The notes: generated from the sequence alone by a model not told the origin. DNA of 64,000 nt from Klebsiella phage vB_KpM_FBKp24 (MW394391.1), one strand, 5' to 3'. Counted from the first letter of the stretch, positions 1-16,659 are shown. Program-made: numbers and translations.

Positions 1-2302
1 CTTTAAACGTACTATTGACGGGCAAATTCGAAAATCTTATAATGCCATTGGAGGTTTCGGACGTTGACCCTGACGTTAACTTAGTGCGATAGCATATTCT
101 AGCGCCCTTCAACTGAATAGGCGCTCTGGCACCGTAGGGAGAGACGCCATAGGTAGATCTTCCATACGTGTAAGTCGAACCGTCACTAGTAGGGTATGCT
201 AAATTATCCCAAACGTTGTAACTATTAGTTCCGCCTGCAGATGGAACAATAACAGAACCATCGGTATAACCATATTGGTTGTCGTCATTTTCCCAACGAA
301 CGTCGACTAATGCGTTTGTACTCTCGGTTACGAAAGTCCTTACTAAATCGCCGAAATTACCTTGTTTCACTCCGTCAAATCGAGTATGGACCGTACTCTC
401 TACAAAACCAGAATATGCTCTGACATAAAAGATTATTTGCGGATCATTAGTATATGTCGTCCCTACCCATCCACCAACGTCAAATGTCGAGGAATACATA
501 AACGCACGATCGGCACTATTACCACCGCCCAAGACAACTGCGCGACTTGACTTACCGACGGCAGAGCCAAAGTTAAAATAGTATCTCTTAACTGTTGTAC
601 CGTAGAAACTTTGCCAGGCTGATTTTGAATAAAAGAGAATACCCTGCAAACAATGACGTATGTTTAAGTTATCTGCATAGAAGTTTTCTGTCCAAGAAAT
701 CTCGTTGCAGACAACGACAGCGGCAGATAAAATGTAACCATGTGCGTGGAAATTAACTAGTTCGTTACCCCAGCCATCGGCGAATCTCGCAAAATGTAAG
801 GGGTTAACTTTGTCCTCACAAAATGCGTAGATCCCCGAAATCTTACCGGGGTTCCAGCAAGGGGCACCTGCGTTCGTGTTAAAGAATTTTATCCCGTACG
901 TTTCCCCGCTTGTGGCATATTTGTGATTTATTTTTACCGTGTCCATCCCTGTTCCATCACCACCTCGAATATGTAACGGGTAGTTAGTAACATCGATAGA
1001 AACGCTGCCGTAAAAGGTATACATTGTATTATTTGGCGGGATAATAATAAGAGGTATACCACCATCTCTTGAACATTTAACCGCGTTCTTTAACGGAGTT
1101 GTAATGTCACTACCTTCAGTAACTCCGTACTCTGAAAGATTAATTTCCCTTTTCTCCCTGATTCTCTCCCAGTAATACCCATTCCCAGCCGCGACTGTGC
1201 CTCCGTCATCGGTCCCTGTCCCTATATGCCCAATGAATTGACCCCCGCCCGAAGTACTCCCAGTGTAATACCCCTTCAGGTTTACTTTCTCGCCTTCAAA
1301 ATTAGGTCTTCTGTTTCTGAGATCATCGAAGGAGTTTACGCCGTAGAACCCCTGAACTACTTGCTCCAGGCTTACGCCGTAAGAAGTATTCACTTTGGTA
1401 GCGCCAGTTGTTTGGCCTAGCGTTAAGAGAACCTCAGCCGGCGTCCCTGATACCTGTGCGGTAATAATCGAGCGAGAACCACCGAGTAAGACTTCAACAA
1501 CGTCGTTCGCTTTCAGCGCTTTCGAAAGATTAATTTTCAGCCCGGTGCTGTCTACTTCGTAGTGTTTATTCAGAACTTGTTTTGAGCCGTTGATGTAAAT
1601 GGCAGGAACCGTACTGAACGTCCACGACGGGGTAAGCGATGTTTCCCCGCCCACTGCTGCGCCGTCGTTATATAACCACGTTACGTTGACGTAGTCAGTA
1701 ATCCCGGGTTCCACAGGCGTCACAGGAGTACCTGGGTATGGTCTGACGTAGAAGACAACGAAAGCACCGGCGGTTAATGCGCCTTTTAATTTTACTTTGT
1801 TCGATAACCGATCGAACGTATAGTTCAACCCTTTGAACTGATGTCCGCCATTCAAGAACATCTCTGAGACATCAAAACAGTCGAACGGTAACGCGATCTC
1901 TGTCTCGCCGCCGTTAGCAGAACCGTTGTTATACAGGTAGCTAACGTATGACGTATAGGAGCCGAATTTACCATCAGCCATCATTTTCCCGGTGCCGTAG
2001 ATAACCGGTGTATTGTCTTTATAAAGGGCTGTGGCAGAAGCACCGTTGACGTTAGTAAACGCAGCGACGTAGAATTGGCTCTCGTCGGTATAGACGTAGA
2101 AGATTTCATCTTTGACGGTGGCCGCAATACCTTCTGCGAGGGTTTCGTAAGCGTTTTCAAAGAGAAGGTTAGCGCGAAGATTATTTAGGGTGGTGCGGTA
2201 TGTTTCCTTTTCAGCGCCCGCTACTGCCACTGGCAATAGAGCAGATTCTGGAACAATACCCTTACTCGAAAGTTCGGAAATTTTTCTTGTGTTATTGGCC
2301 AT
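1..2302 (-). CDS. Tailspike/depolymerase-like protein A, partial (the window cuts off the C-terminal end). ATG at 2302.
   Basis: Hand translation from the minus-strand ATG at 2302 gives MANNTRKISELSSKGIVPESALLPVAVAGAEKETYRTTLNNLRANLLFENAYETLAEGIAATVKDEIFYVYTDES. This carries the same adaptor motif as the five other tailspikes. The frame stays open to the window edge. It is not in the ORF track because the stop codon lies outside the window. Confidence 0.6.
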   Translation of the reverse strand, partial: MANNTRKISELSSKGIVPESALLPVAVAGAEKETYRTTLNNLRANLLFENAYETLAEGIAATVKDEIFYVYTDESQFYVAAFTNVNGASATALYKDNTPVIYGTGKMMADGKFGSYTSYVSYLYNNGSANGGETEIALPFDCFDVSEMFLNGGHQFKGLNYTFDRLSNKVKLKGALTAGAFVVFYVRPYPGTPVTPVEPGITDYVNVTWLYNDGAAVGGETSLTPSWTFSTVPAIYINGSKQVLNKHYEVDSTGLKINLSKALKANDVVEVLLGGSRSIITAQVSGTPAEVLLTLGQTTGATKVNTSYGVSLEQVVQGFYGVNSFDDLRNRRPNFEGEKVNLKGYYTGSTSGGGQFIGHIGTGTDDGGTVAAGNGYYWERIREKREINLSEYGVTEGSDITTPLKNAVKCSRDGGIPLIIIPPNNTMYTFYGSVSIDVTNYPLHIRGGDGTGMDTVKINHKYATSGETYGIKFFNTNAGAPCWNPGKISGIYAFCEDKVNPLHFARFADGWGNELVNFHAHGYILSAAVVVCNEISWTENFYADNLNIRHCLQGILFYSKSAWQSFYGTTVKRYYFNFGSAVGKSSRAVVLGGGNSADRAFMYSSTFDVGGWVGTTYTNDPQIIFYVRAYSGFVESTVHTRFDGVKQGNFGDLVRTFVTESTNALVDVRWENDDNQYGYTDGSVIVPSAGGTNSYNVWDNLAYPTSDGSTYTYGRSTYGVSPYGARAPIQLKGARICYRTKLTSGSTSETSNGIIRFSNLPVNSTFK

Positions 2303-2340
2303 TGCAAGAAACCTCATTGTCGGCAATAGGGCTGTAAAAA

Positions 2341-2357
2341 TAGTCATAGGAAAACAA
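2341..2357 (-). promoter_or_regulatory. Putative late-promoter element TTGTTTTCCTATGACTA (minus strand) upstream of tailspike A.
   Basis: It directly abuts hairpin 2358-2387. The TATG core lies 46 nt before the ATG at 2302. Confidence 0.4.
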
Positions 2358-2387
2358 ATAGAGAGGGGCCGAAAAGCCCCTCTCTAT
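2358..2387 (-). terminator. GC hairpin ATAGAGAGGGG-ccgaaaag-CCCCTCTCTAT, between tailspike B and tailspike A.
   Basis: Perfect 11-bp stem. It is followed on the minus strand by TTGTTTTCCTATGAC. Confidence 0.6.
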
Positions 2388-2469
2388 GATTATTGTTACA
2401 CACGTTATCACAAAGTTGAATTGTAATCAAAGCTTACAATTACCACAAATGTTTTCGCTTCCCTGTAAA

Positions 2470-4698
2470 TTAAATTAAGCTTTTCGCAATAACAGTAGGC
2501 GGCACATTAGCAATAGCTGCTGCAGTTACTGTCGCGGATGCGACGATATCGAGAATACCCGCGCCTGTTGTCGCATCAAACCTGACTACACGGTAAGTTC
2601 CGGTCGCGCCTGCGATGGAAATAAAAGCACCTTCGTAGAGTCCGTTTGGGTTTTGGAAAGTTACTGACCGACTACCACTGGTGGTGGTTACTGTACCGGA
2701 TATTGTATCTAACGTTCCCGAAAGTACAACTCTGTATTCGTTCCAGCGAGTCGCACTAGGCACCGTCGTTCGCACGATACTTCCCTGAATGTGGGTACCG
2801 CTGATAAGACCGGGGGCGCCAGTTAAGTCAGTTACCGTCTTATCTGGTCCGCGATAACCACCGTTATTGGTGCCAAAATAAATACCGCCATCCCCTACGT
2901 TGTTAGCGAAGAAGCTGTCAGGGTGAATAATATTCACGTTCACAAAACGCCCGTCGGTAGAAGTCCCAGTACGGTATTGATAAGGAGCAACGTTGTTAAC
3001 CATGTAGACAATTAAATCTGACATGTTAGCGCGAATCCAGAAGAAAGACCCTGCCGTAAAGCCAGAAAGTACGGATTTATTCCAATTACTTCCTCTATTG
3101 TTTGTCCAGCGCCAACGACCGGCTTTACTTGGAGTATAAGTGATTGTACTAGGGGTGTTATTCACCATTACAGCCCCGGACGAACCTTCGTCAAAATCAT
3201 TATTATCAAGAACAAAGATATTATCTACTTGTTGGAGATTGATCCAGTAACGCGCGTTGGTCGAACCTAATCGTTGATTTTTAAAGGTATTAGAACGAAC
3301 ATAAAGATTACTAATCCTTTGCCCTTCTCCACTAGTTACTTGGTTAATACCGCCGTAACAATTATCTGAAATATTATTTTCAAAATAAATATTATCATAG
3401 GTACAAGTACCTGTGTTCCAAGAACGAATGCGTAATGGACAGGTTTCAATATTACCTTCATTAGTGGAATAAATATTGAAAAACTGATTACCCTGAATAA
3501 CTATGTTTTTGATGTAAGCGCCGTTAGGGGAATTGTCGTCATTTGTCAAATAAACACCTGACTGTATCGAAGTATCGACCAAGTTATTTTTAATAATCAC
3601 ATTTTGCACGTACGTATACAACTTAAACGCGGCCTGTGTGTTTGAAACTTTGTTATCGCTGATCAGAGCATTGTTTACTGGATAATTAGGGTCGAAACTT
3701 CCGCATGAGATTGCGTCATCCCCCACTCGTTCCACTTTATTATTCTGTGCAGTGATGTCGGTTGTGCGATAAAAATGAATTCCATCAGTACCGGCCTTCA
3801 CCGTGTTACCGCCAATATGATCGTGAACGTAACAGTTACGTACAGTGACATTTTTAGAATAATCGAATTGAATACCGTAACCGATAGCATTGGCTTCGTC
3901 AACAAACTCAATCACACCATCGCCAGAGTTAGAAATATACAACGACTTAGGGCCAATTGTCCCAGTGTAACTATTGTAGTTAGGGCGGGTTATTTTAAAA
4001 TGACCAAAGTAGTGTCGGTACTTTGTTACGCTGACTGATTCCGAACCAATCCTAATTCCTTGTCCTAGATGGTTAATTCTGAACTCGGTCAGACTCATAC
4101 CGGCCCCTCTGAAAATGACTCCCTGAGTAGGGACTATGACTGGGGCGTCAAGACGATAGATACCTGGTTTTTGCTGGTAAATGACCTTACCGGAATTGAA
4201 AGCAGCAGTAACAGCGGAGCTACTATCAGTATTCCCGCTAGGGTCCGCACCATATTGTTCCAACGTCGCATATCCCAAAACATCCTCAAGATACCCTTTA
4301 TCTTGCAAAGGAATAATTTTAGTCCCGCCGACCTCACTAACGAGCGCAGCCGATGTTATCTTCCTACTTGTCGGTAATCTTACCTGATTATTGTCATATC
4401 CTAATACTGGGTTAGCAACGCCCGACACATTCTGATATTGCAACACCCACAGTTTTGCAACTGTTTCATAGACGAAGAAGACATCGCCCGACACAGTAGC
4501 ATCTAGTCCAGCGTCTACAGATAAGAAAGCGTTATCAAAGCCCAGAGTTTGGCGAAGATCGTTGATCTTAGTTGCTTTGGTAAATGCGACGCCTGCATCG
4601 GTCTTTGCGTTAATAGGGACGACGTCATTTTCTTTAATGACGCCTGCATCACCTAGTTCAGAAATTTTGATTCCAATGGAATCTGGCAATTTAGGCAT
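2470..4698 (-). CDS. Tailspike/depolymerase-like protein B (742 aa), beta-helix body.
   Basis: The N-terminus KISELGDAG...INDLRQTLGFDNAF...DVFFVYET matches the shared adaptor. The body is rich in N-, G- and V-containing repeats, typical of a right-handed beta-helix. A hairpin plus the TATGAT motif lies upstream. Confidence 0.75.
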   Translation of the reverse strand: MPKLPDSIGIKISELGDAGVIKENDVVPINAKTDAGVAFTKATKINDLRQTLGFDNAFLSVDAGLDATVSGDVFFVYETVAKLWVLQYQNVSGVANPVLGYDNNQVRLPTSRKITSAALVSEVGGTKIIPLQDKGYLEDVLGYATLEQYGADPSGNTDSSSAVTAAFNSGKVIYQQKPGIYRLDAPVIVPTQGVIFRGAGMSLTEFRINHLGQGIRIGSESVSVTKYRHYFGHFKITRPNYNSYTGTIGPKSLYISNSGDGVIEFVDEANAIGYGIQFDYSKNVTVRNCYVHDHIGGNTVKAGTDGIHFYRTTDITAQNNKVERVGDDAISCGSFDPNYPVNNALISDNKVSNTQAAFKLYTYVQNVIIKNNLVDTSIQSGVYLTNDDNSPNGAYIKNIVIQGNQFFNIYSTNEGNIETCPLRIRSWNTGTCTYDNIYFENNISDNCYGGINQVTSGEGQRISNLYVRSNTFKNQRLGSTNARYWINLQQVDNIFVLDNNDFDEGSSGAVMVNNTPSTITYTPSKAGRWRWTNNRGSNWNKSVLSGFTAGSFFWIRANMSDLIVYMVNNVAPYQYRTGTSTDGRFVNVNIIHPDSFFANNVGDGGIYFGTNNGGYRGPDKTVTDLTGAPGLISGTHIQGSIVRTTVPSATRWNEYRVVLSGTLDTISGTVTTTSGSRSVTFQNPNGLYEGAFISIAGATGTYRVVRFDATTGAGILDIVASATVTAAAIANVPPTVIAKSLI

Positions 4699-4724
4699 TT
4701 TTCCACCCTCAGGGTTAAAAGAAA

Positions 4725-4744
4725 GTTAATCATACGAAACAAAA
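4725..4744 (-). promoter_or_regulatory. Putative late-promoter element TTTTGTTTCGTATGATTAAC (minus strand) upstream of tailspike B.
   Basis: It abuts hairpin 4746-4769. TATG lies 36 nt before the ATG. Confidence 0.45.
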
Positions 4745-4745
4745 C

Positions 4746-4769
4746 TGAGAGGGGCGTAAACCCCTCTCA
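4746..4769. terminator. GC hairpin TGAGAGGGG-cgtaaa-CCCCTCTCA in the divergent spacer between tailspikes B and C. It belongs to the hairpin-promoter cassette and is not a terminator of either flanking gene.
   Basis: 9-bp stem. It is immediately followed on the minus strand by TTTTGTTTCGTATGATTAAC. Confidence 0.5.
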
Positions 4770-4861
4770 ACGTATGTTTAATAATGTTTCACTTGCAATG
4801 ACAGAACAGCGGTTGATAAATCGTGGGAGTATAACCAATCTTAATCACGGTCACGATAGTC

Positions 4862-4876
4862 AATGCTATGATACGA
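4862..4876 (+). promoter_or_regulatory. Putative late-promoter element AATGCTATGATACGA upstream of tailspike C.
   Basis: TATGAT lies 41 nt before the ATG. There is no adjacent hairpin, so this is a weaker match. Confidence 0.3.
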
Positions 4877-4907
4877 TTGACTATTAGAGACAATATAAGG
4901 TAAAATT

Positions 4908-7121
4908 ATGGCCAGTGAGATCTATGTAAAGCTCAGTGAAATGGATCGCCCATCAAAACCGGTAAACGATTCCGATCTGGTTTTTATTGCACAAAATGAA
5001 TCAGGGGTTGTTGAGTCTAAAGCGGCGGCCATCTCTGATCTGCGCGCGCTTCTTAATTTTGAAAATGCTTACACTACCACCACACTAGGTTTAGCCGATA
5101 CTGAAGCTAACCAAATCTTCTACGTTTTTGTCGATGCAACAAAAACGACAGTAAAATCTTATATTAATCGTAACGGCATCGCGGAGGCTATCCTTAACGC
5201 GGACGGCACTTTAAAAATCAATTACACTCTCGTCGGAATCGACGCTATTCAGAAAGAAATTAATTCCGTTTATTCCACGGGTGGGTCCAATAGCGTCGGT
5301 CATGTAAGAACAGAGATTGAGTCAAATTCAGCTAGTGTGGCAAAAACGCTGAACGGGCTCCCGGTTAACATTTGGGAATTTTCTAATTTAGTGACTAAAA
5401 AAGACAACCCGAATGATCCCTCTACTTGGGACTGGTCGCCAGCTGTAAGCGCAGCTATTGATAAGTGTATTTATCAAAAGCAAATTAATATCTCCAACGC
5501 ACAAAGATATTGTTCAGGTTGGCTCTTCTTCCCACCGGGAAAATATAGATTAGACAGTAAAATTGTCAAAGATTTAAGTTCTATTACGTACGAGACAGGT
5601 AAACCCCGTTTTAGGATTATGGGCCAAGGGGCTTACATTTCTTCTAATGTTAATAAGGATTATTTGTTAACGTTTACTGGTGGTAGATTGGAAATGGACG
5701 GAATAACGTTCATTAAAGAACCGGGTATTTTTGCTTACTACATTAAACTCGGAAGTGAAGTGACTGCTAACTCAATGGCCGTTGGCGGGAGATTCTCTAA
5801 TCTTAACTTCATGTCGCCCACTAAAGCGATAACCTTCGGTCAGTGTTACGATGCAGTATTTGATTGCATCTACATGACTGGGTTTGTTGCAGTTGACGAT
5901 AGCGATACAAATAACCCTGCGACGGGGATTCATATCTTACCTCAAGCCACGGACAACTCCAACAACATCGTGTTCATCAGACCACACATTGAAACGTCGT
6001 ACACTAAAAACTACATAGCTATTAAAGTAGATCCAACTTCTACCTCCAGTACACACCACAACATTAAATTTGAAGGCGGTCATATTGAGACGCACTTCTA
6101 CGGAGCGAAGTGGTTTAGTTTAGGCGGCGGTACTCAGTTTAATTTCGACACTGTAGTTTTTACAGACAACGGGTCAGGTGGTACGGATACTGCGGGCACT
6201 TACGAATTAGGGTACATCAACCAAGGGATTGTTAAATTTACCGGTTGTACTTTCCAAACACTAAGAAAATCTAGTGTTGCGTATGACAGTTCGATTCACA
6301 CTTCAATGATAAGGTTCGGATCTAGCACTAACACTGGTCGAATTTTCGACAGTTGCTATTTCTCATCGGCATTTTCCGAAGTCTCTGGTAACGGCACGAT
6401 CGCTCCGATTTTTGATGTCAGTGCAAGTACCCAGGGTAAAAGAGCGTACCAACTTATTAACTGCGCAATTAATAATTTTACCAGAAGAATATCAAGTGGT
6501 TTAATTCTTAATGATCTTAAAGTTGCGACAAGGAAATATATTGTCGATGTTGATAGTGACAACAATAGCGCCCTATCTATTTACTACACTAACACCGATG
6601 GATCTTTCAATCCAACTACTCCGATCCTTTCGGTGGCGCAAGATGGAACAATAAGTGGCTACCTCATTAAAACTACGGCTTCAATTTCAAGCGGAAATAT
6701 TCTCCAAATTGGGAATAACAATACTACTGCTGGCGATCGAAGACTGGATTTCTACCCGTACGGCAACACTACTTTAGGAGGTAGAATTTTACTTGGTAAC
6801 ACCGGACCGATGACTTTTACTAGTTATTTATCCGGTATGAACTTTGTTGCTAACGGAGGCGCTAGTCAGTTTAATTTCATGGGGTCAGTAGTACCGAATA
6901 GCAACGCGAACTATGACTTTGGTTCCGCAGCGCTTTCGTGGAAGAACGCTTACTTTACCGGGACTATAACTGTCAACGGTAATCCCGTAGGAGTTAAAGT
7001 AGCGGTACCTTCCTCGGCTACTTCGGCGGGTAGCGTTGGTCAATGGGCGGCTGATACAAATTATCTTTACGTTTGCATCGCCACAAATACTTGGGTGCGG
7101 TCAGCATTGACTACCTGGTAA
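4908..7121 (+). CDS. Tailspike/depolymerase-like protein C (737 aa).
   Basis: The N-terminus KLSEM...ISDLRALLNFENAY...IFYVFVDATKT is an adaptor variant. It has a beta-helix-like body with NN-rich repeats and an upstream TATGAT motif. Confidence 0.7.
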   Translation: MASEIYVKLSEMDRPSKPVNDSDLVFIAQNESGVVESKAAAISDLRALLNFENAYTTTTLGLADTEANQIFYVFVDATKTTVKSYINRNGIAEAILNADGTLKINYTLVGIDAIQKEINSVYSTGGSNSVGHVRTEIESNSASVAKTLNGLPVNIWEFSNLVTKKDNPNDPSTWDWSPAVSAAIDKCIYQKQINISNAQRYCSGWLFFPPGKYRLDSKIVKDLSSITYETGKPRFRIMGQGAYISSNVNKDYLLTFTGGRLEMDGITFIKEPGIFAYYIKLGSEVTANSMAVGGRFSNLNFMSPTKAITFGQCYDAVFDCIYMTGFVAVDDSDTNNPATGIHILPQATDNSNNIVFIRPHIETSYTKNYIAIKVDPTSTSSTHHNIKFEGGHIETHFYGAKWFSLGGGTQFNFDTVVFTDNGSGGTDTAGTYELGYINQGIVKFTGCTFQTLRKSSVAYDSSIHTSMIRFGSSTNTGRIFDSCYFSSAFSEVSGNGTIAPIFDVSASTQGKRAYQLINCAINNFTRRISSGLILNDLKVATRKYIVDVDSDNNSALSIYYTNTDGSFNPTTPILSVAQDGTISGYLIKTTASISSGNILQIGNNNTTAGDRRLDFYPYGNTTLGGRILLGNTGPMTFTSYLSGMNFVANGGASQFNFMGSVVPNSNANYDFGSAALSWKNAYFTGTITVNGNPVGVKVAVPSSATSAGSVGQWAADTNYLYVCIATNTWVRSALTTW

Positions 7122-7124
7122 CTC

Positions 7125-7154
7125 ATAGAGGAGGGCGAAATCGCCCTCCTCTAT
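7125..7154 (+). terminator. Hairpin ATAGAGGAGGGCGA-aa-TCGCCCTCCTCTAT after tailspike C.
   Basis: 14-bp stem followed by TTTGTTTCGTATGACC. Confidence 0.65.
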
Positions 7155-7170
7155 TTTGTTTCGTATGACC
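7155..7170 (+). promoter_or_regulatory. Putative late-promoter element TTTGTTTCGTATGACC upstream of tailspike D.
   Basis: It abuts hairpin 7125-7154. TATG lies 35 nt before the ATG. Confidence 0.45.
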
Positions 7171-7198
7171 ATTTTCAAATAATAACCGGAGCCAGATA

Positions 7199-9454
7199 AT
7201 GTCCGATATTTTTTCTCAAAAGATCTCTGAGTTACAGTCCAGTACAGGGCCGAGTGAAAACGCCTATTTCCCTCTTTCTGAAGCCAATAACGACTTCTCA
7301 GAGAAGGTGAGTATCACTACCTTAAGGGAAACTATTGGTTTTGAGAATGCTTTCCCTACCGTCGCTATTGCGTTACTGGCGACTAAAGAAAGCGACGTCT
7401 TCTTCGTTTATGAGGACGATAAAAAAGAAAACGTTTTGGGTTATGTCAATCAGGGTAACGGGAGTTATTCTGCCTTGATGACTGACAGTAACACTCAGCT
7501 GCGCTATGCTACAAGTAGCTTTGTTGTTAATAGTTTATTCTTTTTGCGGGGCGCGGAGAGTTTCGAAGAACTTAGAACAATTAAGCCATGGTACGAAGGA
7601 CAACGCATTAAACTTAAGAGTTACTACGTTAACGGTTTAACGGGTGGCGGTGAGTTTGTTGCGCGATTAACAGGCGGTGTAGATGACGGCGGTTTTATCG
7701 CGGCGGGAGAAGGGTATTATTGGGAACGTGCTGGCGATGAAATCTCACTTAACAATTACGGGGTCTATTATCAGGATATAAATGCAAACGGGAAAATTAA
7801 TTTCTCTAACGCCGTTCAATCTGCAATTAATAGGGCCAAAAATAAAAAGCTTCCGCTTATTACTAATTTCCCATCTGAAAACCATTACGTTAAAGGTGGG
7901 ATTTACCTCGAATCAGGTATTGATATTACAGGAATAAAATCGATCGAGGGGGCGTTACCCATTATCATCGATTCTTCCATTTTTACGGGTCTGAACGCTA
8001 TCGGTTACCCCGGTATAACATGGGTCCTGTTAAATATTAATGGCTCTTTAGGTACGGACGGTATGATATTCGGTACCAGTGTAGGTAATCAGACCCTTGA
8101 TACAATAGCGATAAGGGATCTTAATCCCAGATCAAAACCTTTAGGCGGGCAATTACACACTTTTTCTGGTACCACAATTAACGGTGCGCTTTGTGCTACC
8201 GGTTTTGATGGCCCTGGTGTTTATCTCTCAAACTGTTACGATTCTAATATTCAAGATATTCGGGCCATCGAATCAGGGAATATTTCTTGGTGGTCCATTT
8301 CGATAGATTCATATCCCAAAGACAGTACTTCTTCGCTGGACACCTCCAATCATTTAGTGATTGGGAGTATTGAACCTCACGATTGCCATGAACGAATTTT
8401 GAATGTCAACGCCTCCGCTTCCTCGGTCGACCATATACATGAAGAAGCGAGCTATGTAACGGACACAACTACTTGGGGTTCGGCTACGGTTTCTAGTAAC
8501 GGTTTTGGGTGGACGAACACGCTTCTGGCTGGTTGGTGTTCTCGCTTTGGTGTGGTAAGGGTTCTACCGAAGAGCACTAATACAGGAAAGCATGTAACGA
8601 CGGTAGTCTCAGATCAAATTTCTATCGATACTTTTCAGACAGAAGGGAACCTCGGCCTCCATTTCACTTATACAAACCCCGTGAAAGGTTCTTCGTACGG
8701 AACAATTGAAGTAGGTACCGATCTTTATATTACGACCAATGTTCCGGGTTCGATAGGTCATTGTTTAGTAAAAGGCGCTAATTCCGTCGTCACTCAGCTC
8801 AGTAAGAAACTTAATGTTAGATCAATGATGATCACGGGGTCTTCTTCATCACTTGTTGACTCTGGTGGCGTATACGGGAACTTAGAGGCTATTGTCGCAA
8901 CTATCGATAGCGGCGTAGTCAGTAAAGGTTCTATAACCACCTTAACGTCTACAGGAAGTACTTCCCTCTCTAACATCGGTATTGTTACTCTCACTTTAAA
9001 CGGGACACGGACAACGGTCAAAGATTGTTACATCAGTGGTGTTTCTAGTTTTTCTGGGGATGGAGTTGTATCAGGGACTACACTTGTTGGAGCAAGCAGT
9101 TTTTCTGGATCGTTTACTTGTTTCGGTATCAAAACAAACGCGAATTTATCTATCAGTAACACCTCTGCGCAGACATATAACTTCTCTTTACGTGATTCGT
9201 TTATTAATGGGCAACTTTCAATAACGAACTACGTTAAAGTGAACATCGACTTCGTCAGGGTCATTAATCTTTACATTTCCATTACTAGCGGATTCTTACT
9301 TCTTTCAAATATCCAAATGACCGGGTCATTAACGGGGAATGTAATAAGTTCAACCAACGTCCCGGCTTTGGGTTCTTCGACGACTGACCCTACTAATGGA
9401 AATAGTTACATTTTCCAATCTGGGGGTTGGAAAATGATAAATATAACTGCATAG
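7199..9454 (+). CDS. Tailspike/depolymerase-like protein D (751 aa).
   Basis: Adaptor sequence MSDIFSQKISEL...LRETIGFENAF...VFFVYED. It shares a further ~100-aa module with protein E (LRTIKPWYEGQRIKLKSYYVNGLTGGGEFVA). A hairpin plus TTTCGTATGACC sits 35 nt upstream. Confidence 0.75.
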   Translation: MSDIFSQKISELQSSTGPSENAYFPLSEANNDFSEKVSITTLRETIGFENAFPTVAIALLATKESDVFFVYEDDKKENVLGYVNQGNGSYSALMTDSNTQLRYATSSFVVNSLFFLRGAESFEELRTIKPWYEGQRIKLKSYYVNGLTGGGEFVARLTGGVDDGGFIAAGEGYYWERAGDEISLNNYGVYYQDINANGKINFSNAVQSAINRAKNKKLPLITNFPSENHYVKGGIYLESGIDITGIKSIEGALPIIIDSSIFTGLNAIGYPGITWVLLNINGSLGTDGMIFGTSVGNQTLDTIAIRDLNPRSKPLGGQLHTFSGTTINGALCATGFDGPGVYLSNCYDSNIQDIRAIESGNISWWSISIDSYPKDSTSSLDTSNHLVIGSIEPHDCHERILNVNASASSVDHIHEEASYVTDTTTWGSATVSSNGFGWTNTLLAGWCSRFGVVRVLPKSTNTGKHVTTVVSDQISIDTFQTEGNLGLHFTYTNPVKGSSYGTIEVGTDLYITTNVPGSIGHCLVKGANSVVTQLSKKLNVRSMMITGSSSSLVDSGGVYGNLEAIVATIDSGVVSKGSITTLTSTGSTSLSNIGIVTLTLNGTRTTVKDCYISGVSSFSGDGVVSGTTLVGASSFSGSFTCFGIKTNANLSISNTSAQTYNFSLRDSFINGQLSITNYVKVNIDFVRVINLYISITSGFLLLSNIQMTGSLTGNVISSTNVPALGSSTTDPTNGNSYIFQSGGWKMINITA

Positions 9455-9456
9455 TT

Positions 9457-9490
9457 AAAAACTCAGTCCTAAAAAGGACTGAGTTTTTTA
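9457..9490. terminator. Hairpin AAAAACTCAGTCCT-aaaa-AGGACTGAGTTTTTT after tailspike D.
   Basis: 10-bp stem flanked by an A tract and a T tract, giving rho-independent terminator geometry in both directions. Confidence 0.7.
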
Positions 9491-9500
9491 TATGACCACC
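9485..9500 (+). promoter_or_regulatory. Putative late-promoter element TTTTTTATATGACCACC upstream of tailspike E.
   Basis: It overlaps the T tract of hairpin 9457-9490. TATG lies 29 nt before the ATG. Confidence 0.4.
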
Positions 9501-9519
9501 TCCATTCAGGATTAAAGAC

Positions 9520-11559
9520 ATGTCTAATGAAACACAGAAAATTAGCGAGTTGAACCCTGCTACTACGCTGACTGAACACACTCTGTTCCCCGTGGTCTCT
9601 GAACAGACGGAGACCAGTAACACAGATATCTCGACACTGCGTTCAGTCTTGTTGTTCGACAAAGCTTTCAACTCAATCGCAGAAGGTACAGATGGAACGG
9701 AGAAAGGAGAGTCTTATTTTGTTTACACGGATGCAACCAAAACCGCGGTACAGGGTTACGTCAACCAAGGTGGGGGTTCTTACACGCCACTTGTAGATAT
9801 CAATGGCGTCGCAGTCCGGTATATCTCCGGGCAGACGCTACGAGGGTTAGATTATTTTACTAACGGCGTAGATTCCTTCGCTAAGTTACGGACACTATCG
9901 CCTCTATACGCTGGGCAACGCGTAAAGTTGAAAAGTTGGGTAGCGGGTGGAAAAACAGGTGGTGGGGAATTTATCGCCGGAATCGGATCGGCGACGGATG
10001 ACAACGGCACGATTGCCGCCGGGAATGGATTCTACTGGCAACGGATTATTTCCGATCGGTTGTCTTTTGAGGATTTCGGTGCGGTCGGGGATGGTGTACT
10101 GGACGATACCAGTAACATTCAAAAAGCGGTCAACTACTGTGCTAAGAACGGCATTGCACTAACGTGTTTAGGGAAAGTCTACGCAGTCAGTACCGTAAAT
10201 TTCCCAACCGATTTAGTGATCGATATGTGTAACGCGGTACTTTTGTCGTTACCCTCTGTTACGACGGGTTATACCTTAACAATCAGCGGTTATTTGTCTC
10301 CTGCGGCTAATCCAGGAAAATTTGATAATATTCGTGTTCAGCGTACCTTAATTAATACTCATCAGCCCGACACTAACAGCGTCGTAGACGGCGTGTCATT
10401 TGGAGTTGATGCGCACAATATTTCCTTCTATAATCTCAAGGTCTCTGGGTTTAGGGACGGAGTTTGTTTTAACGGGAAAAGTGCTTATCTCATTCGTTTA
10501 TACAGCCCGATCATTGGGCAGTGTTGGCGCCGAGGGATGGCCTTTTATGCGAATACTGATTCCAATGAAAACGTGACCATTTACGGCGGCGTGATTGCGG
10601 ATTGTTGTAATTTCACTTTCGACGGTACTGGGGTCTACTTATCAGGGAGTGCCTCAAGTATTGATGTCAGGTTCTTTGGGACCAGTTTTGATTATTGCGA
10701 CATCTCAGTTGATCTTTATCAATCTAACGTCGAGCTTCACGGTTGTCACTTGGAAAACAATAATAACAACCCCCATATTCGACTTTCGTACACCTCAACC
10801 AAAAACCAACCCTATCTGATCATGAAAGGGGGAACAATGGGAGGCGGACCGAACGCGAACTCGTGGAGCGGTATTCCGATAGAAAATAGTACGGGTCGTC
10901 CTTACCTCGTCTTCATTACCAACACTGGCGGTGCCCACGTTGACATTGATGGAACTGACACCAGTAAATACATGACAGGAGTCAGGAGAACTACCGAGAT
11001 CGTAGGTGTAGAGGGCGATAACTACCAGTTGATCGGGACCTTAAGGGTGAGGAACAAAATGACCTCTGGGAACATGGATAACGCCAGTCGCCCCATGCGA
11101 CCTTGTAGTGCCCTTAACGTGATTCTGATCAACCAATATCAAACTGCCGCATGGACACCGAGTTACACTAACGCTGACCTCACTTATACGATTGATACTA
11201 CGAATTACTCTAACCCTAATTCACCGCACTCACGAAAAATTACACAAGGAAGCGTACGTAATGTCTCTTACTGGCAGGACGTGACACTGCGCGGCGGAGA
11301 TATTTTCCACGCGGAGGCCGAAATCAAAATCACATCATTGACGGCTGGTTACGTCGCGCTTAGAGTGGATTTTTACGACTCTGCCGGGAACGTAATACAA
11401 TCGTCAATCAAATCCGTATCTGCGGTGACGGCTGATTGGAATAACGTGTGGGTCTGGTTACGCGCACCAAACGGTACAGTCAAGGCAAAAGTTCAAGAGT
11501 ACTTAAACGGTTTTGTCGGAACGGCGTATTTCACCAATGAACACGTTTGGATTTCTTAA
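9520..11559 (+). CDS. Tailspike/depolymerase-like protein E (679 aa), pectate-lyase-superfamily-like body.
   Basis: MSNETQKISEL adaptor. FEDFGAVGDGVLDDTSNIQKAVNYCAKNG is a classic pectate_lyase_3 / tailspike N-cap motif. A hairpin plus TATATGACC lies upstream. Confidence 0.8.
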   Translation: MSNETQKISELNPATTLTEHTLFPVVSEQTETSNTDISTLRSVLLFDKAFNSIAEGTDGTEKGESYFVYTDATKTAVQGYVNQGGGSYTPLVDINGVAVRYISGQTLRGLDYFTNGVDSFAKLRTLSPLYAGQRVKLKSWVAGGKTGGGEFIAGIGSATDDNGTIAAGNGFYWQRIISDRLSFEDFGAVGDGVLDDTSNIQKAVNYCAKNGIALTCLGKVYAVSTVNFPTDLVIDMCNAVLLSLPSVTTGYTLTISGYLSPAANPGKFDNIRVQRTLINTHQPDTNSVVDGVSFGVDAHNISFYNLKVSGFRDGVCFNGKSAYLIRLYSPIIGQCWRRGMAFYANTDSNENVTIYGGVIADCCNFTFDGTGVYLSGSASSIDVRFFGTSFDYCDISVDLYQSNVELHGCHLENNNNNPHIRLSYTSTKNQPYLIMKGGTMGGGPNANSWSGIPIENSTGRPYLVFITNTGGAHVDIDGTDTSKYMTGVRRTTEIVGVEGDNYQLIGTLRVRNKMTSGNMDNASRPMRPCSALNVILINQYQTAAWTPSYTNADLTYTIDTTNYSNPNSPHSRKITQGSVRNVSYWQDVTLRGGDIFHAEAEIKITSLTAGYVALRVDFYDSAGNVIQSSIKSVSAVTADWNNVWVWLRAPNGTVKAKVQEYLNGFVGTAYFTNEHVWIS

Positions 11560-11572
11560 GAAGGAACTCACT

Positions 11573-11794
11573 ATGTTTCAAGTAGGCGACACCGTTCGCA
11601 TCCTTTCTTGTCAAACTCGAGAAGACTTAGTCGGGAAAGAAACGACCATCAGTGCACTGGACGCTAAACTGGAAGATTTGGCTTGGGCAGATATCTACGG
11701 AATGGATCAATATATTTCGGTGGTCATCGATACCGATGCACGATTTATTGCGGCTCAACTGGAACTCGTAGCCAGTGACATTGAAGGCTCTTAA
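11573..11794 (+). CDS. Small hypothetical protein (73 aa) between tailspikes E and F.
   Basis: The ATG at 11573 is preceded by AAGAAGGAACTCACT, which serves as an RBS. The ORF ends just before the 11801 hairpin. The track's start at 11513 overlaps the end of gene E. Confidence 0.35.
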   Translation: MFQVGDTVRILSCQTREDLVGKETTISALDAKLEDLAWADIYGMDQYISVVIDTDARFIAAQLELVASDIEGS

Positions 11795-11800
11795 GCTATA

Positions 11801-11832
11801 GGCAATGAGGGGACCTAGGTCCCCTCATTGCC
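11801..11832 (+). terminator. Hairpin GGCAATGAGGGGACC-ta-GGTCCCCTCATTGCC after tailspike E and the small ORF.
   Basis: 15-bp perfect stem followed by TTGTTTCGTATGACC. Confidence 0.65.
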
Positions 11833-11847
11833 TTGTTTCGTATGACC
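11832..11847 (+). promoter_or_regulatory. Putative late-promoter element CTTGTTTCGTATGACC upstream of tailspike F.
   Basis: Identical 12-mer to the tailspike-D element. It abuts hairpin 11801-11832. TATG lies 33 nt before the ATG. Confidence 0.45.
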
Positions 11848-11873
11848 GGTTAGCTTTCTTCAGGAAAACAAAT

Positions 11874-13868
11874 ATGTCTAATGATACTCAAAAAATTTCG
11901 GAATTAGGGAGTGCGACTAGCATCCCTGAGAACTCAATGGTCCCTATAGTGACGGCTCCTACCGAAACGAATCAGATCACTCTTTCTTCGTTGCGCTCAG
12001 TATTAAATTTCGAAAGTGCTTTTGATACTATCGAATTAGGATTGGCCGGAACAAAAAAGAACGAACCCTTCTTCGTTTACACTGATGATACGCGGTCGTT
12101 TGTTAACGGGTATATCAACCAAGGAGGTGACACTTTTGCATCGCTTCTCGATAAGGACGGTAAGCAAATCAATAATGTTGTTTACAGTAAAATCATTGGG
12201 AGCGTTTATCGTGGATTTGTTACCGGGCTCTGTCAGAACGCTGGGTTTGCAAACGATAACATTGTCGTCTTAAAGAAAGGGTTAGTGCTCTCGGGAATCA
12301 TGGTAGTCATCGACACTACTTCGCTCCGTTTTTATTTCAGCAACAATTCGACACTCACTGTTGACCATTGGACGCAGAGCGGCGATGACCTTGTGGCGAC
12401 GGATTCCTCAGGGAATAACGTTATACTAGTAGACGGTTGGTCACAGTTATTAACGGGCGGTACTCTCCCTGTTGACGTAAGAAGCGAGACTATTGATTTC
12501 TGGGAAAGAATTAAAACCAACGGGCAATTTGATCTGACAGCTAGGCCAAACGACCCGAAAGGAATTGCAGGTATCGTTTTTGGCGGTAAGAATAACAAAG
12601 GTGCGTTGGTTATTGACCAGCGAGGTCGTCTCCAAACCTATGCGATTAAAAATGGTGTCATGTCGGCGGCCAGAATGGCCATCCCTGTAACGGAACCTTA
12701 CGGTTATGGCACCGGGTCACGGTTAGGAAGTATCACTCGCTTCCCGGTCAGTGGCGCGGAAGACGATAGTCTCTCTTCTTCTATTATTTTTCTACCTCAA
12801 GCAGATGGATCGGCGAAAGCATATTTGGCGGGGCCAGGACTATATACAAACTTTGCTGCGCCTTTTCCTGATGCCGTAAAACGCGTAGCTAAAGAGATTG
12901 TTACAGCCGACCTTTTACCAAGTGCTTTATTGAATTCTTCTACAAACCCAACCGATTGGCTCAGCACAGAGTCTTGGGTTAAATTAGTGACGGTCAATGA
13001 CAATATTCAGGGTTCAGTATTCAGCGGTATTTATTCCGGTGGGGCGGGTTTATCAGAAGCTGTATGTGCTTACTTGATTGAGTTCCAATCGAAACCGTCG
13101 AACGTGACCACGGTCAACGCAAACACACTGCGCTACTACCTTAGAATTACGTCGCTCCGTTCTCGGGGAGATCTGCGTTACAACTCAGGAACGGTACGTT
13201 TTGGGGTGGTGCGAGATGCTACGGCTAATACTTCGACACTTTATGCGCGCTTAGCGGTTCGTTCTGAGAACTCTTCCCTTATCCCTTTGCGCGCTGATCC
13301 GCCTGGTTCCGATGGCGTCGCGAAAGTAACCATCAATACTGTATTAAACAGCTATGTTACGGTTGAGCCAGCCGGGATCGTATATCTTCCCGTTACGGAG
13401 TCGCTGACTACCAACGTCGCTGTTCAGCTCAATAATGGGACGTATGCTCAGACACGCGGAGCGGTGATTCGATTGACGAATAATCTTTCAGCCAACACCC
13501 GAGGATCCTTCGTTACCTCGGGGGAATTCGCCGCAAACGATACTTTATCTGCTATCAACCGGGGCTACGCCGGGCTAGGAGCAGTGACGGCTGCCCGAGT
13601 ATCAACAGGGAAATATACGATCACAGGAGCCTCTACAGGAACTTCCTCGGTTTCTTGGAAAATTACGTCACCATTTGGATCGTTTGGCTCCGGTATTCAG
13701 AATTTGGTGGCGGTAATCGAATCAGATGTTTCTAATGTCATTACCGTAGGCGTGAGAAAAATTCTTTATACCGCGGATACTACTACAGGCGCGGTCACGA
13801 CATCATTAGGGGATTATGTTGACATCCCAGTTGACACTTGGATCGATATTCATACTACGCTCAACTGA
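11874..13868 (+). CDS. Tailspike/depolymerase-like protein F (664 aa from the corrected start).
   Basis: MSNDTQKISELGSATSIPE...LRSVLNFESAF...FFVYTDD adaptor. The track's start at 11805 lies inside the terminator hairpin. The true ATG at 11874 sits 33 nt after TATGACC. Confidence 0.75.
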   Translation: MSNDTQKISELGSATSIPENSMVPIVTAPTETNQITLSSLRSVLNFESAFDTIELGLAGTKKNEPFFVYTDDTRSFVNGYINQGGDTFASLLDKDGKQINNVVYSKIIGSVYRGFVTGLCQNAGFANDNIVVLKKGLVLSGIMVVIDTTSLRFYFSNNSTLTVDHWTQSGDDLVATDSSGNNVILVDGWSQLLTGGTLPVDVRSETIDFWERIKTNGQFDLTARPNDPKGIAGIVFGGKNNKGALVIDQRGRLQTYAIKNGVMSAARMAIPVTEPYGYGTGSRLGSITRFPVSGAEDDSLSSSIIFLPQADGSAKAYLAGPGLYTNFAAPFPDAVKRVAKEIVTADLLPSALLNSSTNPTDWLSTESWVKLVTVNDNIQGSVFSGIYSGGAGLSEAVCAYLIEFQSKPSNVTTVNANTLRYYLRITSLRSRGDLRYNSGTVRFGVVRDATANTSTLYARLAVRSENSSLIPLRADPPGSDGVAKVTINTVLNSYVTVEPAGIVYLPVTESLTTNVAVQLNNGTYAQTRGAVIRLTNNLSANTRGSFVTSGEFAANDTLSAINRGYAGLGAVTAARVSTGKYTITGASTGTSSVSWKITSPFGSFGSGIQNLVAVIESDVSNVITVGVRKILYTADTTTGAVTTSLGDYVDIPVDTWIDIHTTLN

Positions 13869-13879
13869 TTGAGGTTTAA

Positions 13880-15541
13880 ATGAACTATTATTACATTGAT
13901 TCTTCCGCTACAGTTAACGGCGTTGGGACAAAAGGTAACCCCTTTAATTCGATTCAGTCAGCCATTGACGCCAACTTAACTCATCCTCTAACACTATACC
14001 TTAAAGCAGGTCAAACCTACGAACTAGCGTATTATAATCGTACCACTGCCAGTTTCTTTAACAATAAAACAGGCGTCCAGTCCGTCATTACTCGATACGG
14101 TACTGGTGCCAAGCCAATTCTCACCAGTAATAACGATACAATTATCATTGATGCGTACGCGTGCCAGATAAAATTTGAGAATATTCGCATTTCCCCAAAA
14201 CCAGGGTCAGAAAGAACCGCCATCTATCTTAACCTGATCCCGATAGGCGATAGTGCCAATAACAACATTTGTAACTTAACGCTAAACAAGGTTGATTTTA
14301 TTGGCACCCCTGAATCAATAGGGGGGATGAACGGGATTAACCGCGTGTTCTGTTTAAACAGTTTGGTCGATTATGCCGGTCTCAGTAATATTGCGCATAA
14401 ACTCTTAATCAGTAACTGTACATTTGACAACGTTAACGCTGGCGTTCAGTTGAGAGGTAACCCTGATCTCTCAGACAAAACGACCTATCACGGTGACCAG
14501 AAGAAAAGTTATGGTTTTAGAGTGATTAATTGCTCGTTTACGAATATCATTAACTCGGCGGTGTTCATCGGGTGGGCGGCAAGTAAAAATCAATCGAGAG
14601 ATGTCATTGGTGATGATATGGCGACAGGTGTAGACGGTTTGTACTATTCCAGTTACCGTTACAACGTCTACAATACATCAACGGGTGCGTCTCAAGCAGA
14701 CGTCCCAGTCTGGTTCTCTGGAACGCGTTATCTGACATTACAGAATTTCGAAATTCATGGCGCCGGCCCGGCTTACCCCGACCGTCAAACCATTGACTTT
14801 GATTATCATTGTCACTATTGCGTGGCGCGTTACGGGTACACCTCAAACAACGCACGTGGTTCAATGATTATCCAAGGACCTTTCAGTAACAGCTGGTACA
14901 GTTCTAAAGGATACACACCATTGTCCAATGATGCGTATACTTTGTACTATACGCTTGGTTTTGGGTCGATTGGCAACGTCATTGAATACGTTATTTCTTT
15001 CAACGACGGGGTAGGGAGAACGACCAGTACTGCTGATAAATATTGGCAGAAAACTTCTGCGTTCCGATACGTTTATGATAACGTAGTGCGTAACTGTGTC
15101 TTTATTGATACCGTGACCACGGCGAACGATAACGTGATTGCCATTAACCCACAGACAGACGACAGTTTAACTGCGCTGAGCCTGACTTTGGACAGTAACA
15201 TTTTCTACTATGCTAACAAGACCGCCACGGAATTAGTCACTCCTGCTTCGATGACTAACTTCCCGACCATGATGTCTAAATTCAAATTGAAAAATAATAT
15301 TTTCTTTTCTGAAAAATGGGCAGGTGCAACGCCGACTTCAACGGGACTGATCGAAGAAGGGAATCTCTTTACTAACCCTGCTTTTTTACAAGGGTTGTCG
15401 AACAGTTCTTTTGCGGGCTTGAAAGAAGCGTTGTTGGCTATCAAATTGAAAATGACTAGTCCTTGTATTGGGAGTGGCTCATCAAACAATAACCCAGACT
15501 TTATCGGTAAAGTTGGGAACAACATCGGATCAATTCAATAA
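13880..15541 (+). CDS. Beta-helix (pectin-lyase-fold-like) protein with no adaptor domain (553 aa). Possibly a free or piggy-backed depolymerase.
   Basis: The N-terminus YYIDSSATVNGVGTKGNPFNSIQSAIDA...LYLKAGQTYEL is typical of right-handed beta-helix proteins. It starts 12 nt after gene F, so it is probably co-transcribed. A bidirectional terminator lies downstream. Confidence 0.55.
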   Translation: MNYYYIDSSATVNGVGTKGNPFNSIQSAIDANLTHPLTLYLKAGQTYELAYYNRTTASFFNNKTGVQSVITRYGTGAKPILTSNNDTIIIDAYACQIKFENIRISPKPGSERTAIYLNLIPIGDSANNNICNLTLNKVDFIGTPESIGGMNGINRVFCLNSLVDYAGLSNIAHKLLISNCTFDNVNAGVQLRGNPDLSDKTTYHGDQKKSYGFRVINCSFTNIINSAVFIGWAASKNQSRDVIGDDMATGVDGLYYSSYRYNVYNTSTGASQADVPVWFSGTRYLTLQNFEIHGAGPAYPDRQTIDFDYHCHYCVARYGYTSNNARGSMIIQGPFSNSWYSSKGYTPLSNDAYTLYYTLGFGSIGNVIEYVISFNDGVGRTTSTADKYWQKTSAFRYVYDNVVRNCVFIDTVTTANDNVIAINPQTDDSLTALSLTLDSNIFYYANKTATELVTPASMTNFPTMMSKFKLKNNIFFSEKWAGATPTSTGLIEEGNLFTNPAFLQGLSNSSFAGLKEALLAIKLKMTSPCIGSGSSNNNPDFIGKVGNNIGSIQ

Positions 15542-15551
15542 CGCACCAAAC

Positions 15552-15583
15552 ACAGACAGAGGGGCATGAGCCCCTCTGTCTGT
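15552..15583. terminator. Bidirectional terminator ACAGACAGAGGGG-catgag-CCCCTCTGTCTGT between convergent genes.
   Basis: 13-bp stem between the plus-strand 553-aa gene and the minus-strand 203-aa gene. T tracts follow on both strands. Confidence 0.7.
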
Positions 15584-15592
15584 TTATATCTT

Positions 15593-16204
15593 TTATTCGT
15601 CGGCTTGTTCAACCAGAATGAATTTGCTGTCTTCGGTATTAATCGCTTTACCGCTCTCAGTAAGCAGTGAACCGCGAGGAATTTTGCTACCGCCACTACA
15701 GGTAACATCCAGATTACCAGACCAAACATGGCTGTTATAAGTTGTACCGGCTTTAGTCTGAATCGTCACCACCGCCGTTTCACCGGTCGGAATGAACGGT
15801 AAATAATCTGACGCATTAGCGATATCTTCAACGTCGATGTACAGGCTGTATTTTGCCTTGATCAGCGGTAAAAGATCCGCAATCGTCGACGCGGTCTCTG
15901 GTAGCACAAGAGTCGGGCCGACGGATGACATCAGTTTGTTCAGTTCGATGCGAGTGTAGGTAAAGGTCTTGCTACCCGTCACCGGGGAACGGCCTGTAAC
16001 GAGTACAGAGATACGATCTTCGGTACCCGGTACAGTTGAACCGGTGATGTTACCGAAGCTCAGATAACTCGCGTTAAGCGGCGTGGTGAGGTTATTCTGC
16101 TGACTGATCAGATCAGCGAGAATCTCAAATTTGGGACGACCGAATAAATCGACGTACATGGGGTATACTCCATCTGATAATTGTAAGCTTACACAATAAT
16201 GCAC
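15593..16204 (-). CDS. Hypothetical protein (203 aa). An alternative start at 16159 is possible.
   Basis: Long ORF convergent with the tailspike block. An internal ATG has a GGAG RBS. Confidence 0.5.
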   Translation of the reverse strand: MHYCVSLQLSDGVYPMYVDLFGRPKFEILADLISQQNNLTTPLNASYLSFGNITGSTVPGTEDRISVLVTGRSPVTGSKTFTYTRIELNKLMSSVGPTLVLPETASTIADLLPLIKAKYSLYIDVEDIANASDYLPFIPTGETAVVTIQTKAGTTYNSHVWSGNLDVTCSGGSKIPRGSLLTESGKAINTEDSKFILVEQADE

Positions 16205-16209
16205 GCTGC

Positions 16210-16596
16210 CTACCAGACAGGTTCCCCACGATCAATGAAACGAATCCTCTCTTTCTTACAGAGTTTCGCTAGAATATCCTTGAGTAAGTGGCGGTGACAA
16301 AAACAATCGTGTCCGCAATAACAAGCCAAACAAATACGCCCTTGGTTGATCAACCATATCCAGGGTTCAGGATCTCTCTTAAATCGTTCGCGAGTTAATT
16401 TATAGTATATCTCGACGTATTCCGCTTGATTCACAATTCCTTGTTTATACGGCCAGAGGAGTTCGGGTGTTGGGGCAAATATTTTCTCACCTGACTTTAG
16501 CGTGGTGTCAACAAATAAAATATCTAATCCTTCCCATTTCCGCCAATCAGGGATTCTCCCAGTCCAAACCTCTAGCTGTTTAAAATCATGAAACAT
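16210..16596 (-). CDS. Small Cys/His-rich protein, DUF4326-like (128 aa from the ATG at 16596).
   Basis: The C-terminal pattern LACYCGHDCFCHRHLLKDIL resembles the DUF4326 signature L.CwC....CH...L. GGAGG lies 5 nt upstream of the ATG at 16596. The track's start at 16617 is a TTG. Confidence 0.45.
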   Translation of the reverse strand: MFHDFKQLEVWTGRIPDWRKWEGLDILFVDTTLKSGEKIFAPTPELLWPYKQGIVNQAEYVEIYYKLTRERFKRDPEPWIWLINQGRICLACYCGHDCFCHRHLLKDILAKLCKKERIRFIDRGEPVW

Positions 16597-16659
16597 TTTT
16601 CCTCCAAATTGAAGCAAAAAAAAAACAGTTTACGGATCCTTTTCCCTAGACCCGAAGGT

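Follow-up and report, generated by a model that had tools for sequence, protein, structure and literature searches.

How can one virion carry many different capsule-degrading fibers, and by which part is each of them held? The question is raised by positions 1 to 15,541 of a 64,000-nucleotide (nt) stretch of DNA from Klebsiella phage vB_KpM_FBKp24 (phiKp24; MW394391.1); this whole stretch is referred to below as the window. Seven long genes, here numbered T0 to T6, lie there in a divergent arrangement, with T0 and T1 on the minus strand and T2 to T6 on the plus strand (Table 1). A sequence-only reading of the window had described six of them as sharing an N-terminal template in front of unrelated bodies. 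In an exact-sequence look-up, six of the seven proteins (T1 to T6) were residue-for-residue identical to deposited phiKp24 proteins from a 307,210-bp contig, and the lengths of T1 to T4 and T6 (742, 737, 751, 679, and 553 amino acids [aa]) equal those of the fibers in Supplementary Data 2 of Ouyang et al. 2022 (PMC9700779). T0 is cut by the window edge, so that an exact match is impossible; it was identified as gp306 by its position beside gp307 and by its domain layout. Its 883 aa in the published record exceed the 680 to 750 aa that had been given for the array. We are highly confident that this region makes up the right-hand half of the phiKp24 receptor-binding-protein cluster, and the same confidence covers, taken as a whole, our explanation of its depolymerase fibers, their attachment, and their expression.

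The array is real, but it is a rediscovery of a known and experimentally studied system, and our points on the adaptor, the slots, and the cassette are modest inferential refinements. The branched fibers of phiKp24 have been imaged by cryo-electron tomography, nine susceptible K types were reported, and 14 β-helical depolymerase fibers were predicted, gp306 to gp310 and gp313 among them (PMC9700779). In that study, fibers were grouped by N-terminal length, and gp306 was proposed as the primary fiber on account of its T4gp10-like domains and of an N-terminal part longer than that of any other fiber. Recombinant phiKp24 fibers were later studied in DepoCatalog (Nat Commun 2026; PMC13385381), where 11 of the 14 were reported to be active. 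Spot assays showed that gp306 degrades the KL137 capsule (in the supplement), gp307 that of KL114 (as a "colanidase-like" class 5 enzyme), gp308 that of K46/KL146, gp309 that of KL158, and gp310 that of K61. According to this published work, gp306 to gp310 are trimeric capsule depolymerase fibers, each directed at one Klebsiella capsule type, which jointly widen the host range. The view of the locus as a multireceptor branched fiber system with a common N-terminal module, swappable bodies, and a broad capsule range is thus supported. Its relevance to Klebsiella phage therapy, with one virion covering at least 14 capsule types, is already established.

The phiKZ-like setting that had been read from the sequence was also borne out. 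By taxonomy look-up, phiKp24 is Maaswegvirus Kp24 of the family Chimalliviridae, a nucleus-forming jumbo phage, and the genus contains vB_KpM_Centimanus as its second species. Shenzhenvirus, which PMC13436347 names among the genera of its phage cocktail, was rejected as the genus of this phage, since it is part of Demerecviridae. Positions 30000 to 50000 of the window match Centimanus with 98.6% identity, and fragments of RNA polymerase beta subunits are annotated in that part of Centimanus, in line with split RNA polymerase genes. The phage encodes chimallin, which forms the nucleus shell, and the tubulin PhuZ, with the nearest relatives in Serratia phage 2050HW (PMC8386662). We found no support for the suggestion of an apparatus that is out of the ordinary or new in this lineage: the window is phiKp24 itself, and its fiber apparatus (PMC9700779), its depolymerase specificities (PMC13385381), and the multiple fibers of sister phages (PMC10265529 and PMC13436347) are published.

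Within this known system, we tentatively propose that the shared N terminus is an undescribed, lineage-restricted virion-anchor fold carried by at least eight fibers, which would occupy parallel slots and bear a second tier of fibers, with gp313 sitting on gp312. Parts of the cluster outside the window were inferred from Centimanus, KpLz_1_41, and the supplements of the published papers.

Six fiber proteins share an N-terminal adaptor

The N-terminal residues of T0 to T5 (1 to 105 up to 1 to 115) align with one another, with 32 to 45% identity to T4, and contain 12 invariant columns (M1, K7, S9, E10, L40, R41, F46, A49, T60, V68, V77, and N82). All six proteins match phrog_27731 from position 1 to ∼110 (E values of 1e-13 to 1e-28), a PHROG annotated as "unknown function." A hidden Markov model (HMM) built from the six adaptors found exactly six sites in the six-frame translation of all 64 kb (E values of 1e-44 to 1e-51) and none in T6. 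These results confirm the common template in six genes and its absence from the seventh. The motif itself is looser than had been written, as T2 reads KLSEM where KISEL was expected and T0 reads FYVYTD...AFTNVNG. By BLASTP, the bodies of T0 to T6 show no similarity to one another outside the N-terminal modules.

The adaptor family is small. An exhaustive profile search of 1.84 billion proteins yielded 132 representatives, in which the adaptor starts within the first 11 residues in all but two weaker, multistretch matches; the proteins are mostly 570 to 1,350 aa long, plus some short fragments. A word-indexed homolog search with a 110-aa adaptor query returned no homolog, and the sole candidate collected did not score. 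Among annotated phages, tblastn found the adaptor in only 21 records, with 4 to 8 copies each, and these belong to ∼300-kb Klebsiella jumbo phages and ∼275-kb Moabite-like phages of Serratia and Pectobacterium. At least eight adaptor proteins are encoded by phiKp24, since gp301 and gp168 add to the six in the window: the cloning primer of gp301 encodes the initial adaptor residues MDKSSLKI, and the sequence of gp168 in the DepoCatalog supplement matches our adaptor HMM (E value of 2.8e-26). A 915-aa phiKp24 protein, equal in length to gp301, was matched in BFVD.

Structure prediction of the adaptor from the six window sequences was unusable (predicted local distance difference test [pLDDT] score of 49), and an alignment of 48 sequences gave a score of 84. 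A profile of the 48 adaptors matched the PDB only at chance level (E values of ≥0.12), with no resemblance to anchors or XD domains of solved structure. The fold search found nothing comparable; its significant BFVD matches were confined to phiKp24, 2050HW, Moabite, Yaphecito, and unnamed UniParc entries. The phiKp24 literature that we found describes neither the common ∼105-aa adaptor nor the membership of T5 in the system nor the T5-T6 pairing; the word "conserved" is absent from the 2022 paper (PMC9700779), and the 2026 paper (PMC13385381) strips N termini ahead of its analysis. An undescribed anchoring solution, which had been raised as a possibility, may in part still apply to the adaptor, which has no description in this literature and no solved structural relative, but not to the fiber apparatus, which is published.

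As a separate observation, a 950-aa metagenomic fiber protein contains four tandem units of ∼45 aa (YETxAxGIAATVxGEYFSVPS...IYRNVSGVATE) that match the second half of the adaptor. This half may be a small repeat domain that is more widely used.

Adaptor paralogs recur on unrelated bodies

When adaptors were clustered at ≥60% identity into paralog types, the same type was found on many different bodies. The gp307-type adaptor has 14 representatives with 12 unrelated body groups and the gp308-type adaptor 12 representatives with 12 groups, while the 6 gp306-type and 8 gp301-type representatives fall into 6 and 8 unrelated body groups, respectively. Conservation drops sharply near residue 110 in gp307, 100 in gp308, 190 in gp310, and 375 in gp306. 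Because the adaptor types recur on many unrelated bodies and conservation falls sharply past the module, we read them as fixed slots with exchangeable bodies. The first ∼105 residues of T0 to T5 would constitute a lineage-specific virion-attachment module, present as distinct paralogs, and each paralog would mark a fixed position ("slot") in the fiber apparatus. Recombination beyond the adaptor would then swap the enzymatic body at the conservation drops of these four fibers, which for gp307 and gp308 means residues ∼100 to 120.

The parallel-slot reading differs from the published view, in which a single primary fiber bears everything. If it is true, the slots would provide defined cut-points for retargeting a jumbo-phage scaffold to chosen capsule types. 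The practical value lies in a map that lists the N-terminal module of each slot, the natural recombination points, the short-peptide fibers described below, and the mobile gp312-gp313 pair; it should be of use to engineers of phiKp24-type phages and to readers of a future cryo-electron microscopy map of the baseplate.

The gp312-gp313 pair

T5 (gp312) bears the adaptor but does not belong to the set of 14 depolymerases published in 2022 (PMC9700779). Its body (residues ∼200 to 664) matches phrog_20024 and the Pfam family Phage_tail_C_2, and searches of the PDB with family profiles of the T5 and T6 types gave no matches. T6 starts 11 nt past T5, and the T5 body and T6 together span positions 12471 to 15541. 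In at least five distinct lineages, the gene for a T5-type body adjoins one for a T6-type protein with unchanged order and orientation; these lineages are represented by KpS110 (Ackermannviridae), RaK2 (Alcyoneusvirus; ORF526/525, which overlap slightly), Miami (Miamivirus), 1513 (Webervirus), and LASTA (Lastavirus). BLAST coordinates placed the two side by side in at least six further phages. The spacing ranges from a few to ∼30 nt, or the genes overlap slightly. Every lineage provides the T5-type body with an N terminus of its own, and the N terminus of the T6-type protein is conserved across lineages. Judged from these sequences, T5 is predicted to be a nondepolymerase fiber, and gp312-gp313 represents a mobile two-gene cassette present in many unrelated Klebsiella phages.

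Two putative docking classes and models of attachment

Some fibers of the cluster lack the adaptor. Centimanus proteins 00365, 00368, and 00369 start with MLTDFNRPQGS, MQTNFIQPSGS, and MLDRLVQPGGS, and the cloning primers of phiKp24 gp303 and gp300 encode the starts MLTDFNKP and MLDRLVQP. This short peptide was found on no gene inside the window. In podophages of the KP32 type, the first receptor-binding protein has a T4gp10-like branching domain onto which the second docks with a short, conserved peptide at its N terminus, as was shown experimentally (PMC13352976). By analogy, adaptor-bearing fibers of phiKp24 would occupy the primary slots, gp306 and gp301 (the latter outside the window) would add T4gp10-like branching domains behind the adaptor, and the short-peptide fibers (MLTDFNxPxGS or MLDRLVQP; gp303 and gp300) would most likely dock on the branching domains of gp306 and gp301.

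Several points weigh against our explanation as a whole. In the published model, gp306 alone is attached to the baseplate and the other fibers are peripheral (PMC9700779). The docking of short peptides on gp10-like domains is carried over, as a presumed parallel, from podophages and Ackermannviridae, where it was demonstrated for KP32 and modeled for CBA120. The predicted adaptor model (pLDDT of 84) is a monomer, whereas fiber proteins are trimers. The putative T5-T6 partnership is read from synteny; Latka et al. 2019 noticed both genes in phage 1513 and proposed a soluble, nonvirion enzyme for the second. Depolymerase activity of gp313 is not reported in the published work, and none is reported for T5 either. 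The alternative proposed by Ouyang et al. 2022 (PMC9700779) would place gp306 alone on the baseplate via its long N-terminal region and the other fibers on the gp10-like domains of gp306 and gp301, in layers set by N-terminal length, with the adaptor acting as a plug; we consider it rather unlikely. Both gp306 and gp301 do contain gp10-like domains, but their adaptor is also that of the supposed secondary fibers, so that the hub would bear its own plug, and gp306, which is unique by N-terminal length in the published scheme, here has its adaptor in common with gp307 to gp310. Moreover, the same phages possess a different, short-peptide N terminus that resembles docking peptides known to bind branching domains, and the groups formed by N-terminal length do not coincide with the classes formed by N-terminal homology. 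It seems very improbable to us that the adaptor lacks a specific role in attachment and is mainly a cap for folding or trimerization or a handle for recombination. The empty fold search means that an attachment function is not transferable to the adaptor by homology, and the sharp conservation drops past the module show that the adaptor frames recombination, both of which would suit such a role. However, its place at the very start of nearly all fiber proteins that contain it speaks for attachment, as do its confinement to one phage lineage, while the bodies are common to many, and the persistence of distinct and conserved paralogs across phages. In other Klebsiella phages, a conserved N terminus is the virion anchor (PMC6872550 and PMC13352976).

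The second question concerns gp313, which has no adaptor. The constant association of the T5-type body with a T6-type gene makes it most likely that gp313 is borne by T5, or released together with it, and has no anchor of its own. That gp313 is a soluble depolymerase, released at lysis, located outside the virion, and functionally unrelated to T5, is possible, if somewhat doubtful in our judgment. It would agree with the proposal of Latka et al. 2019 for the homologous gene of phage 1513 and with the finding that T6 has neither the adaptor nor the short docking peptide, and strict synteny would equally fit a coexpressed soluble enzyme. Nevertheless, T6-type genes always lie directly behind the T5-type body across at least five lineages, and their conserved N terminus fits a constant partner. 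Both readings would account for a T6 without an adaptor; on the basis of these sequence comparisons, we slightly favor a gp313 that is carried by T5.

Body domains, expression signals, and gene layout

The fiber bodies were examined for known domains. T0 contains T4gp10-like branching domains with matches to PDB entries 9d83_D and 9d80_D, and the published HHpred analysis placed the T4gp10-like region of gp306 at residues 64 to 275 with a probability of 97 to 99.9% (PMC9700779). No relevant paper for PDB entries 9d80 to 9d84 was found in the literature. A second N-terminal domain, widely distributed among tailspikes, is common to T0, T3, and T4. The earlier description of all bodies as β-helices can be retained in part: T1 matched the Pfam family Beta_helix (PF13229; E value of 2e-8) in our own search, and for T0, T2, T3, and T6 the fold is based only on published Phyre2 and AlphaFold3 work, which covers gp306 to gp310 and gp313, while T5 is not a predicted depolymerase. 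For the pectate-lyase-like body that had been noted, our search gave a subthreshold match of T4 residues 184 to 216 to the pectate-lyase-like N-motif PF12708. The bodies of T0, T2, T3, and T6 had no Pfam or PDB sequence match, PDB sequence searches of T1, T2, T5, and T6 gave no matches, and NCBIfam and permissive Pfam scans returned nothing further for the window proteins.

Strong, GC-rich hairpins separate the genes. A TATGAY motif, which has a background frequency of 0.375 per kb per strand, was found 29 to 46 nt upstream of the ATG in all six adaptor genes and was absent upstream of T6 and of the small open reading frame (ORF) between T4 and T5. The late-promoter consensus of phiKZ is TATG, and transcription starts at its G (PMC4666361). 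This pattern suggests separate late transcription units for the adaptor genes, each of which would consist of a hairpin followed by a late-promoter-like TATGAY motif; T6 would be cotranscribed with T5 and the small ORF with T4. A scan for sigma-70 promoters showed no excess (31 sites versus 29.5 expected from shuffled sequence).

TABLE 1 Positions of genes, protein domains, and putative expression signals in the array
Feature	Residues (aa)	Positions (nt)	Strand	Remarks
T0, phiKp24 gp306 (inferred)		1–2302	−	767 aa visible, left end off the window
T1, gp307, QQV92007.1		2470–4698	−	742 aa; exact sequence match
T2, gp308, QQV92009.1		4908–7121	+	737 aa; exact sequence match
T3, gp309, QQV92005.1		7199–9454	+	751 aa; exact sequence match
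T4, gp310, QQV92016.1		9520–11559	+	679 aa; exact sequence match
Small ORF, presumably gp311		11573–11794	+	73 aa; start 13 nt past T4 stop
T5, gp312, QQV92018.1		11874–13868	+	664 aa; exact sequence match; annotated "tail protein"
T6, gp313, QQV92030.1		13880–15541	+	553 aa; exact sequence match
T0 adaptor	1–105	1988–2302	−	HMM, phrog_27731, alignment
T1 adaptor	1–116	4351–4698	−	
T2 adaptor	1–107	4908–5228	+	phrog_27731
T3 adaptor	1–108		+	phrog_27731
T4 adaptor	1–107		+	phrog_27731
T5 adaptor	1–105		+	phrog_27731
T0 T4gp10-like branching domains	103–294	1421–1996	−	PDB 9d83_D (E value of 9e-26), 9d80_D, CBA120 7rej/7rfo
T0 generic tailspike N-domain	321–420	1043–1342	−	BLASTP to T3 and T4; PDB 6w4q, 6tgf, 7lzj
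T3 generic tailspike N-domain	118–230		+	After adaptor
T4 generic tailspike N-domain	115–217		+	After adaptor
Hairpin, T-run, and TATGAC		2343–2387	−	46 nt upstream of T0 ATG
Hairpin, T-run, and TATGAT		4729–4771	−	36 nt upstream of T1 ATG
TATGAT, motif only		4867–4872	+	41 nt upstream of T2 ATG
Hairpin after T2 and TATGAC		7125–7169	+	35 nt upstream of T3 ATG
Hairpin after T3 and TATGAC		9462–9496	+	29 nt upstream of T4 ATG
15-bp hairpin and TATGAC		11800–11846	+	33 nt upstream of T5 ATG; overlaps spurious ATG 11805
Terminator-like hairpin		15552–15583	+	Closes plus-strand block after T6

Between T4 and T5, at the position of the presumed gp311, one entry is missing from the RefSeq protein numbering. 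A longer ORF for T5, starting at ATG 11805, was rejected; this start lies inside the 15-bp hairpin, and both the deposited product and the adaptor alignment begin at position 11874. Directly after the cluster, small genes occupy positions 15593 to 19958 on the minus strand, and a homolog of one of them is annotated as a "virion structural protein" in Centimanus; these genes are candidates for fiber-hub or baseplate parts. Database entries for Klebsiella pneumoniae (WP_107333906-910) include near-identical copies of T3 to T6; they come from a 306,749-bp contig, which is probably a phiKp24-like phage genome inside a bacterial assembly.

Comparison with known systems

The array is the same object as the published phiKp24 gp306-gp313 system (PMC9700779 and PMC13385381), with six identical proteins and matching gene order and lengths. 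Multiple fibers have also been described for phiKp5130/9438 (PMC10265529) and for Centimanus, to which "nine depolymerases" were assigned (PMC13436347). These sister Klebsiella jumbo phages, together with KpLz_1_41, KpXa_1, and KpLz-2_45, have the backbone in common with phiKp24 (98.6% identity for Centimanus and ∼76% for the others), and they possess the same divergent fiber cluster with the same adaptor paralogs and the same two N-terminal classes. They differ in the bodies: only 8 to 47% of window positions 1 to 16000 match at the DNA level, in patches. Centimanus lacks equivalents of gp307, T5, and T6 and has a different set of fiber bodies despite its 98.6% identical backbone, so that cassettes have clearly been exchanged between these two species of the same genus.

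Moabitevirus-like phages of Serratia and Pectobacterium (Moabite, 2050HW, Yaphecito, Kodama, and ParM-25) contain the same adaptor family, in 4 to 8 copies per genome and with 35 to 37% identity, but their hosts and bodies differ from those of phiKp24; we found no functional study of their arrays in the literature. The Alcyoneusvirus phages phiK64-1 and RaK2, with 10 to 11 receptor-binding proteins, also carry many depolymerases on a branched apparatus, and RaK2 holds the T5/T6-type cassette. However, they belong to another lineage, which is not nucleus forming, and the tblastn search with the adaptor returned no RaK2-type record. The same logic is seen in TSP1 to TSP4 of Ackermannviridae (the CBA120, Vi01, and Menlow group) and in KP32-type phages, namely, a conserved N-terminal attachment part, T4gp10-like domains, and swappable β-helical bodies. 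The short-peptide fibers of phiKp24 and Centimanus are candidate counterparts of the secondary spikes of these systems. Unlike these systems, which use one anchor, phiKp24 encodes at least eight adaptor-bearing proteins per genome.

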